A stretch of 64,000 nt of DNA from Odoribacter sp. (lineage in GTDB: Bacteria > Bacteroidota > Bacteroidia > Bacteroidales > Marinifilaceae): the NCBI GenBank assembly GCA_036657595.1, contig JAVXFZ010000008.1, forward strand, positions 108-64,107, written 5' to 3'. The notes under the pieces were generated by a model. That model did not search any database. It was not told the DNA's origin and was given only the letters and a program-made list of their open reading frames with translations. Positions within the stretch are counted from its first letter, which is position 1; each line of letters starts with the position of its first letter. Positions 58,622-63,191 of the stretch are shown here, piece by piece. The position numbers and the translations under genes are program-made.

Positions 58622-59941
58622 ATGGAAATAGATGACGACTTAATTTCGCTGAAGTTACCGGATCAGGGGCAAGAGGAATCGATTATTAAAGTGATCGGTG
58701 TCGGTGGTGGCGGAAGTAATGCTGTGAACCATATGTTTTCTCAGGGAATTCACGGTGTCGAATTTGTCGTTTGTAACACGGATATACAGGCTTTGCGACA
58801 GAGCCGGGTGAAGAATCGTATACAATTGGGGAAGGAGCTTACGGATGGACGTGGGGCAGGATGTCAGCCTGAACAGGGACGTTTGTCGGCGGTTGAGAGT
58901 ATTGATTTTATTAAAACGATTCTTCAGCATAATACCCGTATGGTATTTATCACAGCCGGAATGGGCGGTGGAACGGGTACAGGAGCTGCACCGGAAATTG
59001 CAAGGTTGGCTCGAGAGATGGGGATATTGACGATTGGAATTGTCACCGTACCTTTTAGTTTTGAAGGGAAACGAAAGATAGAGCAGGCGATGGAGGGGAT
59101 TGATGAATTGGAGGAGTATGTCGATGCTTTGTTGATTATTGCCAACGAACGACTGCGAGAGATATATGGCGACTTGAAATTGTCGGATGCTTTTTCTATG
59201 GCTGATAATATATTGACAATTGCAGCTAAAAGTATAGCGGAGATTATCACGGTCAAGGGATATGTGAATGTCGATTTTGCCGATGTGGAGAGTGTTATGC
59301 GTGAGAGTGGCGTTGCCTTGATGGGAGCTTCTGAGGCAGAAGGGGAGGAACGTGCAATGGAAGCTTTGTCAAATGCATTGATATCTCCTTTGCTGAATAG
59401 TAATGATATTCGGGGCGCTTCGAATATTTTACTGAATATACTTTACGGTGAAAAAGAGGTGACGATGGATGAGATTAGTTTGATTACCGATACGTTGCGA
59501 GAGAAGGTAGGGAAGAATGTAAATGTTATTTGGGGAGCGGGTAAGGATGAGGTTTTGGGTGAAAAGTTGCGTGTAGCTGTTATTGCTACTGGTTTTAATA
59601 GTAATGGTGGTAAGGTATCGCCTGCTATATCACAACGAAAAGAAACTCCTGTTGCACAGACTGTTTCTGTTGCACCGGAAGCTCCTGTGAGTAAGCCTTA
59701 TTTTAAGGTGGAAACTTTGCCTGATGATTTAGAGATGAGGGTGGTTAATCCGGTAGAAGTGGAAAATGAAGCACGTCAGCGGCGACAGAAACAGGAGGAT
59801 GAGCGTGAACGTCGGCAGCGACGGAATGTAAATCGGCGTACTGAAGATTTTGAACGTGGCAATCGTGGTCTGAATGAGGTGCCTGATACCAATAGTTGGC
59901 TAAAGAATAAGATAGGGACATTATTCAGCGATGATGAATAA
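58622..59941 (+). CDS. ftsZ: Cell division protein FtsZ, paralogue 1 (439 aa)
   Basis: IKVIGVGGGG, GMGGGTGTG tubulin signature, T7 loop NVDFADV, VIATGF. Confidence 0.96.
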   Translation: MEIDDDLISLKLPDQGQEESIIKVIGVGGGGSNAVNHMFSQGIHGVEFVVCNTDIQALRQSRVKNRIQLGKELTDGRGAGCQPEQGRLSAVESIDFIKTILQHNTRMVFITAGMGGGTGTGAAPEIARLAREMGILTIGIVTVPFSFEGKRKIEQAMEGIDELEEYVDALLIIANERLREIYGDLKLSDAFSMADNILTIAAKSIAEIITVKGYVNVDFADVESVMRESGVALMGASEAEGEERAMEALSNALISPLLNSNDIRGASNILLNILYGEKEVTMDEISLITDTLREKVGKNVNVIWGAGKDEVLGEKLRVAVIATGFNSNGGKVSPAISQRKETPVAQTVSVAPEAPVSKPYFKVETLPDDLEMRVVNPVEVENEARQRRQKQEDERERRQRRNVNRRTEDFERGNRGLNEVPDTNSWLKNKIGTLFSDDE

Positions 59942-60026
59942 AATGCAATGGACGAGCAAGAATGAATGATAGAATAAAAGGGGTGAATAAGTGAAGAGGT
60001 TCAACATTCAATATTTAGTGATCGAC

Positions 60027-60056
60027 AGATAAACGGATAAACGAATAAACGAATTA
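60027..60056. repeat. 8-bp-period tandem repeat between the two ftsZ genes
   Basis: AGATAAAC GGATAAAC GAATAAAC GAATTA. Confidence 0.65.
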
Positions 60057-60061
60057 GGGTC

Positions 60062-61189
60062 ATGGTTGACGGATTTATAAATTTTAATCTGAATGAGAAG
60101 ACTCCCACTATTATTAAAGTGATTGGCGTAGGAGGAGGAGGAGGAAATGCAGTGGAGTATATGTACGATAAGGGGATCTGCGATGTGGATTTCGTAATCT
60201 GCAATACAGATTATCAGGCATTGAGGAATAGTCCGATACCTTTTAAAATACAGCTTGGCAAAGAACTAACGGAAGGACACGGTGCTGGTAATAATCCGGT
60301 GATGGGTGAACAATCAGCGCAAGAAAGTTTGGGTGATATAGAAACGCTTTTGCAAAATAATACCCGAATGGTGTTTATTACGGCTGCGATGGGAGGTGGA
60401 ACAGGCACAGGTGCTGCTCCGGTGATAGCAAAAATTGCTAAAGATATGGGTATCCTTACCGTCGGTATTGTTTCTGTTCCGGCACGCTTTGAGGGTCCGA
60501 AACGGCTTGATCAGGCTCGCGACGGATTGAAGCGATTGAAGGATCACGTTGATTGTCTTATTATGATAGATAATGAAAAGATAAAGTCAATATATGGTTC
60601 TCAAACAATTTCTGCTGCTTTTGCTAAGGCGAATGATGTGTTGAATATTGCGGCGAAAGGAATCGCTGAGATTATTACGCTTCCCGGTTATATCAATGTT
60701 GATTTTGCTGATGTGAGAACAGTGATGACCGATAGTGGTGTGGCTATTATGGGGGCGGCGCAGGCATCCGGTGAAGATCGTGCAATACGTGCGATAACGG
60801 AGGCATTAGAAAGTCCATTGTTGAATAATAATGATATTTTAGGAGCAAAGGATATATTGTTGAATATTACGTCCGGTACGGATGAAATCACGATGGATGA
60901 GATGTCGCAAATTACTTCGCATATTATTCAAAAGGTGGGTAATAGTGCGGCAGTGATCTGGGGGGTAGGTACGGATATTAATTTAGGGGATGCCATCTCT
61001 GTAACGATAATTGCTACCGGTTTTCCTACCGGTGATATAGAGCTGTTTGGAGAGGATACGGTGAGTACGGATGTGGATAGACCTGTTACATTAAAAGATG
61101 CAGTTGTCAAACCGGGATTGACTGCCACAGCAATACAGGAACTTGAAAGTGTCCCTGCTTTCAAGAGGAGGGAATTGAAAGTCAATTGA
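60062..61189 (+). CDS. ftsZ: Cell division protein FtsZ, paralogue 2 (375 aa)
   Basis: IKVIGVGGGG, AMGGGTGTG, NVDFADV, IIATGF; C-terminal ELESVPAFKRR. Confidence 0.96.
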   Translation: MVDGFINFNLNEKTPTIIKVIGVGGGGGNAVEYMYDKGICDVDFVICNTDYQALRNSPIPFKIQLGKELTEGHGAGNNPVMGEQSAQESLGDIETLLQNNTRMVFITAAMGGGTGTGAAPVIAKIAKDMGILTVGIVSVPARFEGPKRLDQARDGLKRLKDHVDCLIMIDNEKIKSIYGSQTISAAFAKANDVLNIAAKGIAEIITLPGYINVDFADVRTVMTDSGVAIMGAAQASGEDRAIRAITEALESPLLNNNDILGAKDILLNITSGTDEITMDEMSQITSHIIQKVGNSAAVIWGVGTDINLGDAISVTIIATGFPTGDIELFGEDTVSTDVDRPVTLKDAVVKPGLTATAIQELESVPAFKRRELKVN

Positions 61190-61240
61190 AAATGAAAATA
61201 ACTACTGATCTTTCAGGGTTAAAAAGATTAGTGGGATAAA

Positions 61241-61355
61241 AAATGCAGATCGCTGCATTTATATTGAGAATACGGCGTTTGCCGTTTGTGAAGCAGCTAA
61301 GGCTGCAATAATTTTAACGCAGTCACAGGCTGCTTGTAACGCAGTCATAGGCTGC
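61241..61355 (+). other. Array of short GC-rich hairpins / direct repeats upstream of the DEAD-box helicase gene
   Basis: AAATGCAG-ATCG-CTGCATTT, ACGGC-GTTT-GCCGT, GCAGC-TAAG-GCTGC, and TAACGCAGTCA(C/T)AGGCTGC twice at 22-bp spacing. Confidence 0.7.
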
Positions 61356-61367
61356 ATAAATAATCGA

Positions 61368-63191
61368 ATGGAAAAATTTAAAGAATTAGGTTTAGAAGGA
61401 GAAATCCTTAAGGGAATTGAAGATTTAGGGTTTGATATGCCCACACCAGTGCAGGAAAAAGTGATCCCAGTGATTTTAGGGGAAGGGAATGATTTGGTTG
61501 TACTTGCTCAAACAGGTACAGGAAAAACTGCCGCTTTTGGTCTACCGTTGTTACAAAAACTCGATACCTCTTTGAATGAGGTGCAGGTGCTTATTTTGAG
61601 TCCTACTCGGGAATTGTGTATGCAAATTGGTAAGGATTTAATGAATTATGCAAAATACAGGAAAGATATTCGTGTTGCTTGCGTATATGGAGGGACGGAT
61701 ATTCGCAGGCAGATGAGTGAATTGAATAGGGGTGTACACGTTTTGGTTGCAACACCGGGACGGCTTTGCGATTTAATGAAGCGGAATGCTGTGAAGATCG
61801 TACACGTGCGGTCTGTAGTACTCGATGAGTCGGATGAGATGTTGAATATGGGTTTCAAGGAAGATTTGAATTTTATCTTAGACGAAACACCATCGGAGAG
61901 AAATACTTATTTGTTTTCTGCAACAATGCCGCGCGAGGTGGAACGGATTGCGAAGCATTATATGCGTAATGCACAAGAAATTTCTACCGGAAAGAAGAAT
62001 CAAGGAGCTGATACGGTGTCGCACGAGTATTATCAAGTGCTTGCTCGAGACTGTTATGAAACTTTGCATCGTGTGATTGATTGTTCTCCTGATATGTATG
62101 CAATTATCTTTACACGTACGAAAGTGGATGCACGGGATATTGTGCGTAAACTTCAGAAAGATGGGATTGATTGTGATGCTTTACACGGTGATTTGAGTCA
62201 GGGACAACGCGATGAAGTGATGGAGCGTTTCCGTGGAAAACGTTTGAAAGTACTGGTCGCAACCGATGTGGCTGCTCGTGGTTTGGATGTTGATAATCTG
62301 ACTCACGTAATCAATTATAATTTGCCGGAAGATGTGGAAAGTTATACCCACCGTAGTGGTCGTACCGGTCGTGCCGGTCGTGAGGGTATTTCGGTAGCGA
62401 TTATCAATTCAAAGGAAAAGGGGAAATTGCACAGGATTGAGAGTGTGTTGAAAAAGAAATTCCAATATCGGGAAGTGCCTCGTGGAGAGGAAGTATGTCG
62501 GGCACAACTTCTTTATTATGCTGATAAGATATTGGCATCGGAGCCCAAAGAGATGCTTGATAAATATCAGCACGAATTATTTGAGAAATTTGGTGAACTG
62601 ACAAAAGAGGAGTTGATACAGAAAATAGTGTCGTACGAATTTGGGAAATTGCTTAAGAAATATGCTTCGGTGAATGACTTGAACATTTCAGAGGATGAGC
62701 GGCACAGTGATCGGGGTGCCCGAACTGAAGGACGTGGTGAGGTGCGTAGAGGTGGACGCGATAGAGAAGAAAGCAGTTCATTTACCCTTTTCAACGTGAA
62801 TGTAGGTCGGGAAGATGGTTTCACTCCACGCGACCTGATGGCAATTATTAATACTTATTCTCCACGAAAAGGTATTGAGATCGGTGGTATACGAATCTTT
62901 GACAACAATACGAAGTTTGAGGTAGATATTCGAGGAATAGAAGGATTTATGTCCAATTTTAATAATGTGAATTTTAATGGACTGCCTTTTACTCTTTCAG
63001 AATTACAGGAACGCTTTAGTCGTGGCGGAGATAGAGGTGATCGCCCTCGTGAATTTGGTGATCGTCGAAATTCTACGGCGAATAATAAATGGCGTTCTGA
63101 AAACCGACGTAGCGATGGTAGTAGTCGAGGACGTTTCGGTGAAAAGAAGAAAGGGATAGATAGTGTTAGTCGTCCACGTAAGAAATATTAA
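61368..63191 (+). CDS. DEAD-box RNA helicase (DeaD/CshA-like, with DbpA-type RNA-binding domain and Arg/Gly tail)
   Basis: Q motif PTPVQ, AQTGTGKT, PTREL, TPGRL, motif II DESD, SAT, HRSGRTGRAG. Confidence 0.93.
   Translation: MEKFKELGLEGEILKGIEDLGFDMPTPVQEKVIPVILGEGNDLVVLAQTGTGKTAAFGLPLLQKLDTSLNEVQVLILSPTRELCMQIGKDLMNYAKYRKDIRVACVYGGTDIRRQMSELNRGVHVLVATPGRLCDLMKRNAVKIVHVRSVVLDESDEMLNMGFKEDLNFILDETPSERNTYLFSATMPREVERIAKHYMRNAQEISTGKKNQGADTVSHEYYQVLARDCYETLHRVIDCSPDMYAIIFTRTKVDARDIVRKLQKDGIDCDALHGDLSQGQRDEVMERFRGKRLKVLVATDVAARGLDVDNLTHVINYNLPEDVESYTHRSGRTGRAGREGISVAIINSKEKGKLHRIESVLKKKFQYREVPRGEEVCRAQLLYYADKILASEPKEMLDKYQHELFEKFGELTKEELIQKIVSYEFGKLLKKYASVNDLNISEDERHSDRGARTEGRGEVRRGGRDREESSSFTLFNVNVGREDGFTPRDLMAIINTYSPRKGIEIGGIRIFDNNTKFEVDIRGIEGFMSNFNNVNFNGLPFTLSELQERFSRGGDRGDRPREFGDRRNSTANNKWRSENRRSDGSSRGRFGEKKKGIDSVSRPRKKY

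Follow-up and report, generated by a model that had tools for sequence, protein, structure and literature searches.

A covarying stem-loop next to the start codon of a DEAD-box RNA helicase gene in Odoribacter: a small, genus-specific candidate cis-acting mRNA element

The window, a stretch of 64,000 nucleotides from an Odoribacter draft assembly (2.99 Mb, 40% GC, 174 contigs), carries on its forward strand ftsZ2, encoding a second FtsZ paralogue (60062-61189; Tubulin and FtsZ_C domains), and downstream of it a gene encoding a DEAD-box RNA helicase of 607 amino acids (61368-63191; DEAD 1e-50, Helicase_C 1.6e-33, DbpA 8.5e-12), which also has an RNA-binding domain of the DbpA type and a tail rich in Arg and Gly. 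The stop codon of ftsZ2 opens a spacer of 178 nt (61190-61367) that ends at the helicase ATG at 61368. The gene order ftsZ2-helicase is kept across the family, with spacers down to about 25-40 nt. The two ftsZ paralogues are arranged in tandem (58622-61189); the second FtsZ ends in a conserved PAF/YxRRxL tail, and within the family the helicase gene is always the next one.

The spacer contains a series of hairpins on the forward strand. All five stem-loops listed in the initial annotation are present and a sixth, H0 (61202-61234), had been missed; it has 12 bp, including G-U pairs, and a predicted energy of -12.5 kcal/mol. The others are: H1 (61241-61260; AAATGCAG atcg CTGCATTT then TTATATT; -7.8 kcal/mol), which is small and terminator-like, with an A-run and T-rich sequence on its flanks; H2 (61272-61285; ACGGC gttt GCCGT then TTTGT); H3 (61293-61306; GCAGC taag GCTGC); H4 (61319-61333; GCAGUC aca GGCUGC, with UAAC before it); and H5 (61341-61355; GCAGUC aua GGCUGC, with GUAAC before it), which is the conserved core element. 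As had been described, H4 and H5 belong to two near-identical 19-mers (61315-61333 and 61337-61355) that lie 22 nt apart and differ in a single loop base (C61326 versus T61348), each with one U-G pair that exists on the forward strand only. The 3' end of H5 lies 12 nt upstream of the helicase ATG, again in agreement with the first description, and the interval is filled by the A/U-rich, unpaired AUAAAUAAUCGA (61356-61367).

The predicted fold of positions 61190-61380 has an energy of -56.9 kcal/mol (z = -4.46 on the forward strand; 0/200 shuffles were as good), and that of the reverse strand of the spacer region has z = -3.48; the H5-type hairpin of the window is predicted at -6.2 kcal/mol in the sense and -2.7 kcal/mol in the antisense direction. 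Among 2,444 intergenic strands of the genome, this spacer is the one most densely packed with short GC-rich hairpins. The 19-mer, expected 0.00 times in the window, has no other occurrence in the 2.99-Mb genome, and a repeat family of 49-50 nt (D1) was noted alongside the near-identity of H4 and H5. An open reading frame of 22 codons (MQIAAFILRIRRLPFVKQLRLQ, 61243-61311) spans H1-H3 and has as its stop codon the TAA within the candidate -7 box discussed below; it is probably fortuitous, since H1 and H3 are missing from most other species.

The hairpins had initially been regarded as part of a 5' UTR leader of the helicase. The compared leaders suggest another arrangement: the helicase is probably co-transcribed with ftsZ2 in most species and the hairpin is then intercistronic, because the synteny is conserved, the spacers are short (36-190 nt in the compared leaders) and no TAnnTTT[GA] promoter box was found within ~200 nt of the ATG in 19 of the 20 leaders. 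The sole such box occurs in the window genome, as part of a candidate Bacteroidota-type promoter (61285-61316; a motif match only) that consists of TTTG (61285-61288), a 20-nt spacer and TAATTTTA (61309-61316). Its predicted start, at ~61321-61324, falls within the 5' arm of H4, and H3 sits in its spacer, between the candidate -33 and -7 boxes. The paralogous helicase genes of the window genome have clear TATCTTTA or TACTTTTG boxes, and the hairpin motif is absent from them. We found no map of Odoribacter transcription start sites in the literature.

To compare the leader, 60 relatives were searched at the DNA level and the loci were aligned after re-orientation. The only conserved part is the portion nearest to the start codon, and it is conserved only within the genus. 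Where H5 lies, a GC-rich hairpin of 5-6 bp occurs in each of the 18 Odoribacter species genomes with an orthologue of the helicase (two further genomes, without an orthologue match, are outside the 18), and distinct metagenome variants likewise carry it. The metagenome set comprised 54 contigs, many of them from human-gut assemblies, and most have the leader of the O. splanchnicus-type genome G005; in a contig scan of named close relatives, the orthologues had at most 51% identity. The array of hairpins, which the initial annotation had treated as one element, is thus conserved only in part: H5 is found in 18/18 species and H4 is kept in 12 compared sequences; H2 has counterparts in G013, G014 and G015; and H0, H1 and H3 are local, restricted to the window genome or its nearest relative G009 (H0 does not align in other species, H1 is absent from them and H3 is common only to G009). 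At least two hairpins occur in the helicase leader of 15 of the 18 species, and the remaining three have H5 alone, in a spacer of 36-40 nt and 8-10 nt after the ftsZ2 stop. Nor is the near-identical repeat pair a conserved feature: since H4 and H5 differ in other species (GCAAC for H4, GCAGC for H5), their near-identity reads as local homogenisation or duplication in the window genome and its closest relative. In G005 the spacer is ~190 nt long (L007:1680-1806, minus strand) and consists mostly of a near-pyrimidine-free purine tract, with GCTAAAAG/GTAAAAG-like units, upstream of H4 and H5. Populations of O. splanchnicus vary in one loop base, in a G/A within the purine tract upstream of H4 and in the length of an A-run.

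The stems of H5 differ from species to species (GCAGY/RCUGC, GCAAC/GUUGC, GUAGC/GCUAC, GCGGY/RCCGC, GCCGC/GCGGC and GCGAU/AUCGC) and the two arms change together. In a MAFFT alignment of 20 distinct sequences, with hairpins picked at orthologous positions by a best-hairpin rule, all 96 of the 96 counted base-pair cells of H5 pair and four of its five pairs show compensatory double changes (11 cells; GC, AU, CG and UA), figures that should be read with the small number of pairs of a 5-bp helix and the relatedness of the 20 sequences in mind. None of 500 shuffles reached this pairing or covariation, registers slid along the alignment were at most 55% paired, and RNAalifold predicts the same helix. 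For H4, 60/60 cells are paired and three pairs have a compensatory change. The loops of H5, on the other hand, differ in nearly every species (AUA, GAC, AGA, UGAG, CGGGU, GCUC, GAAUAG and others). A covariance model (R1) was run over 97 genomes of the family and gave strong matches in Odoribacter only, one per genome and at the helicase locus in 18/18 Odoribacter genomes; one extra weak match in the genus (G002) does not lie before the helicase, and the three weak matches (E = 0.002-0.006) in 77 genomes of 22 other genera do not adjoin the helicase gene either. A permissive scan of the leader with Rfam 15 returned no relevant family (best E = 0.78). The H5 element is therefore single-copy, restricted to the genus and not in Rfam, and its proposed lineage specificity is supported at the level of Odoribacter.

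Over the helices of H4 and H5 there are 7 G-U cells and 0 A-C cells, and the sense hairpin is at least as stable as the antisense one in 16 of 19 sequences. Because the arms covary, the loops are free and the wobble pairs occur on one strand only, these patterns indicate that selection acts on the forward-strand RNA rather than on a DNA palindrome recognised by a protein, and the proposal that the element acts as sense-strand RNA is in so far strengthened. The position is constrained as well: of 19 distinct sequences, 13 have H5 at 12 nt from the ATG (range 11-14 nt), with a spacer sequence that has diverged among the species, and the distance from the ftsZ2 stop to H5 runs from 8 to ~160 nt. 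H5 thus follows the helicase ATG and not the ftsZ2 stop, and should therefore belong to the initiation region of the helicase. In the minimum free energy folds of all leaders of the genus the 12-nt spacer and the AUG are unpaired. Bacteroidota initiate translation without Shine-Dalgarno pairing, and it is the local structure of the mRNA that tunes initiation (PMC6847099); a helix abutting position -13 would therefore be well placed to matter.

Various known classes of elements were considered and set aside. H4 and H5 are not intrinsic terminators: they are followed by UUGUAACG and AUAAAUAA and have no U-tract, a terminator scan flags only H3, and the terminators of the window genome, taken where convergent genes end, have stems with a median of 13 bp and A/T tracts on their flanks, whereas the stems of H4 and H5 have 5-6 bp. 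A thermometer that occludes the start codon (ROSE, fourU or cspA-type) does not fit an unpaired AUG with 12 unpaired nucleotides before it. A REP, BIME or MITE repeat is contradicted by the uniqueness of the 19-mer and its core in the genome and by the one strong R1 copy per genome; a pattern of TAAC plus hairpin is merely 1.8-fold enriched genome-wide, and the flank ATAATTTATAACGC belongs to no repeat family in the genome, with only two spacers that share a 16-mer. Membership of a general class of start-proximal hairpins was also rejected, as the genome-wide distribution of hairpin-to-start distances has no peak.

On the comparison of sequences, H5 is best regarded as a real, small and genus-specific cis-acting mRNA element. 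In the reading that we prefer, and to which we give about even credence, H5 is an RNA stem-loop that acts in cis within the ftsZ2-helicase transcript, often accompanied by H4 as a second copy, and the structure of H5 and its ~12-nt spacing are under selection; its role is probably the tuning of mRNA stability or of translation. The helicase would be co-transcribed with ftsZ2 in most species and a GC-rich hairpin of 5-6 bp (-4 to -11 kcal/mol) would abut a short A/U-rich initiation region, where it could serve as a structural barrier or insulator. Endonucleolytic processing might take place in the flanking A/U-rich single strands (a conserved RUAAM on the 5' side and an AU-rich 3' side), and the hairpin together with an initiating ribosome 12 nt downstream would leave little naked RNA, so that the barrier would determine how stable the helicase cistron is, and how well it is translated, relative to ftsZ2. 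The extra hairpins H0-H3, and the fact that H4 and H5 are nearly identical in the window genome, could then represent recent local additions that strengthen the barrier. RNase Y and RNase E/G-family genes are both encoded. Some observations count against this scheme: the GUAAC that is conserved 5' of the hairpin is no match for the RNase E motif RN|WUU; the window genome has a plausible promoter of its own that would start inside H4; and look-alike hairpins elsewhere in the genome (see below) suggest that such structures can arise without long-term selection. What the comparison shows is the structure of H5, its covariation, its strand, its fixed spacing and its single-copy, genus-restricted distribution; that the two genes are co-transcribed, that the RNA is processed and that stability or translation is affected are steps that we infer.

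The leaders of E. coli ompA and B. subtilis aprE contain 5' stabiliser stem-loops with a nearby ribosome-binding site. The Odoribacter element resembles them in the combination of a hairpin with a close initiation region, at a distance that is constrained on both sides, but the ompA and aprE hairpins sit right at the 5' terminus of a primary transcript, whereas H5 is probably intercistronic. Protective intercistronic or 5' structures are known to shape operon stoichiometry (PMC5927463, PMC4423207). Among these, the malE-malF REP, the papBA 5' hairpin and other cases of selective RNA processing and stabilisation likewise involve a short stable stem-loop that is kept between co-directional cistrons, and H5 shares with the protective stem-loops of operons that it is not a terminator and adjoins A/U-rich single strands (PMC5927463, PMC4423207). 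In contrast to them, H5 is single-copy and no REP repeat, is only 5-6 bp long and keeps a fixed 12 nt to the downstream AUG, and its phylum does without Shine-Dalgarno pairing. RNase Y can be guided by a downstream helix (PMC5449607). Its site in saePQRS is likewise intercistronic, with a conserved single strand a few nucleotides upstream of a helix, but the guide helix of S. aureus has 24 bp (PMC5449607), compared with 5-6 bp in Odoribacter, where cleavage is hypothetical.

The initial annotation had favoured an autoregulatory or cold-sensing leader, in which unwinding by the helicase or a low temperature refolds the hairpins and thereby alters mRNA decay, termination or translation. We consider such a leader, which would be a functional analogue of the 5' UTR of E. 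coli deaD, unlikely. The helicase is of the DeaD/DbpA type and does have an RNA-binding domain and a basic tail, and helices of 5-6 bp, like those found here, are of the size that a non-processive DEAD-box protein can open. The presence of at least two hairpins in 15/18 species, the rank of the window spacer as the most hairpin-dense of its genome, and the hairpins in orthologous leaders of Sphingobacteriales and Flavobacteriaceae would also agree with it, and there is precedent in the autoregulation of E. coli DeaD through its 5' UTR, by way of mRNA stability and Rho termination (PMC7430678), and in the location of a Bacteroides DEAD-box helicase in a cold-shock operon (PMC13370968). The leader of E. 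coli deaD (csdA) (PMC7430678) and the Odoribacter one are both structured non-coding RNAs that immediately precede a helicase gene of the DeaD/DbpA type, and by analogy a feedback via mRNA stability would be conceivable. However, the E. coli leader measures 838 nt and has its own promoter, whereas the Odoribacter spacers of 36-190 nt, 19 of 20 without a promoter box, are probably intercistronic and do not form a long promoter-proximal 5' UTR of that type; sequence or structure homology between the two leaders is lacking. Likewise, the cspA 5' UTR thermometer (Rfam RF01766) is a leader hairpin of a gene class that is often cold-induced, but the helix of H5 excludes the start codon and the 12 nt before it and has no Rfam match.

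Several further observations argue against autoregulation. The loops are not conserved, which makes specific recognition by the DbpA domain unlikely and removes a DbpA/YxiN-type target (23S hairpin 92-like) from consideration; the AUG is not occluded by the hairpin; a single hairpin suffices in three species; and the paralogous helicase genes of the window genome lack the motif. Structured helicase leaders are not a phylum-wide property either, since across Bacteroidota they exceed control leaders in structure by a marginal amount only (median z -0.77 versus -0.24, p = 0.026). That the hairpin or hairpins gauge the RNA-unwinding capacity of the cell, in a phylum without Shine-Dalgarno pairing, we hold to be quite unlikely. 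In such a scheme, scarcity of the helicase or cold would leave the hairpin folded against the 12-nt initiation region and the helicase mRNA shielded; abundant helicase would melt the 5-6-bp helix, make the A/U-rich leader accessible to RNase Y or RNase G and so reduce its own synthesis; and the species might tune the set-point by the number of hairpins (one to six).

The hairpin could also belong functionally to the upstream gene, as a 3'-end element of the ftsZ2 (dcw) message that blocks 3'-to-5' exonucleases or acts as a weak attenuator and keeps the ftsZ2 mRNA stable or abundant relative to the helicase, like the malE-malF REP. The intercistronic position, with 19/20 leaders devoid of a promoter motif, would suit such a role, as would the proximity to the ftsZ2 stop (8-10 nt) in the three species with H5 alone, the T-rich tails on H1, H2 and H3, of which H3 was flagged as terminator-like, and the precedents of malEFG and SRPS (PMC5927463, PMC4423207). 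We nevertheless judge it improbable, as the hairpin keeps its distance to the helicase ATG (11-14 nt) and not to the ftsZ2 stop (8 to ~160 nt), and as H4 and H5 have no U-tract and only 5-6 bp, against the median of 13 bp for the terminators of the genome.

Finally, the palindromes might have no function and have arisen as by-products in the AT-rich spacers of this lineage, through local duplication or template switching. Some eight further GC hairpins of small size were seen 7-16 nt before start codons at operon junctions of the window genome, among them the junctions nuoJ-K, rmlC-D, thiG-H, coaE-terB-like, abcF-trmH and QC-ung (loci C25:6129-6211(-), C9:56594-56618(-), C100:6129-6183, C20:26913-26997(-), C5:4875-4927 and C6:2848-2906). 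They precede nuoK, rmlD, thiH, a TerB/DnaJ-like gene, a TrmH-family gene and ung, in what are likely operons, and typically have 5-6 bp and a 3-nt loop, often with UAAC or UAAA before and AUAAA after the hairpin; a look-alike was also seen before fabD in G002. The two that were checked in congeners, nuoJ-nuoK and rmlC-rmlD, are absent there, and the spacers of the congeners are much shorter. Such unconserved look-alikes imply that small hairpins arise readily in this lineage, and it is by its retention that H5 stands out. A neutral origin is further suggested for parts of the array by the restriction of H0, H1 and H3 to the window genome or its closest relative, and by the near-identity of H4 and H5 together with repeat family D1, which point to recent duplication. 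For H5 itself, which is kept genus-wide with compensatory substitutions, a free loop and a fixed spacing, a pattern that drift would not yield, we regard a neutral origin as very unlikely; it is plausible, and tenable, only for H0-H3.

The initial annotation had kept a DNA operator as an alternative. In such an operator a dimeric transcription factor would bind the 22-bp-spaced palindromes (~two helical turns) on duplex DNA, and in the window genome it would suit this that H3 falls between the -33 and -7 boxes of the candidate promoter and that H4 coincides with the start predicted for it. The operator is nevertheless exceedingly improbable, since the arms change by compensatory substitution while the pairing stays (GCAG, GCAA, GTAG, GCGG, GCCGC, GCGAT), G-T wobbles occur on one strand only, the 22-bp pair exists in some species only and with varying H4-H5 spacing, and most species have no promoter here.

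Post-transcriptional control in Bacteroidota is poorly mapped and, to our knowledge, these bacteria lack Hfq, CsrA and Shine-Dalgarno-based initiation. A covariation-supported and position-locked stem-loop before the gene for an RNA-remodelling enzyme, in a culturable genus of the human gut (O. splanchnicus), may therefore offer a compact test case for the effect of an upstream structure on initiation and decay in this phylum, and bears on a second question, namely whether feedback of a DEAD-box helicase on its own leader also exists outside E. coli. Unless the feedback model is true, the expected advance is incremental: the element is small, is confined to one genus and is of a familiar general kind.

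Some further observations were made on leaders and spacers beyond H5. In Flavobacteriaceae (L056, L081, L096 and L067) and in a mostly Sphingobacteriales group (L046, L068, L095, L065, L099 and L077), the helicase orthologue has a clear TAnnTTTG box and, immediately after it, a lineage-specific hairpin in the 5' UTR; in the Flavobacteriaceae, a CACAG beside the AUG could serve as an alternative partner for the 3' arm CTGTG. Within the window genome, an exact 16-mer, ATAATTTATAACGCGG, is common to two unrelated spacers (C20:26933-26946(-) and C25:6150-6163(-)), where it leads into different hairpins, and the H4 flank ATAATTTTAACGCAG resembles it; no larger repeat family was found, and the shared 16-mer points to copying from a template or to an insertion process on a very small scale. 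Within the helicase gene, the first ~30 nt of the coding sequence (ATGGAAAAATTTAAAGAATTAGGTTTAGAAGG, 61368-61400) are near-invariant across several genera, synonymous sites included, and the following 160 nt have 76-85% identity within the genus, which suggests an extra constraint on the helicase initiation region.
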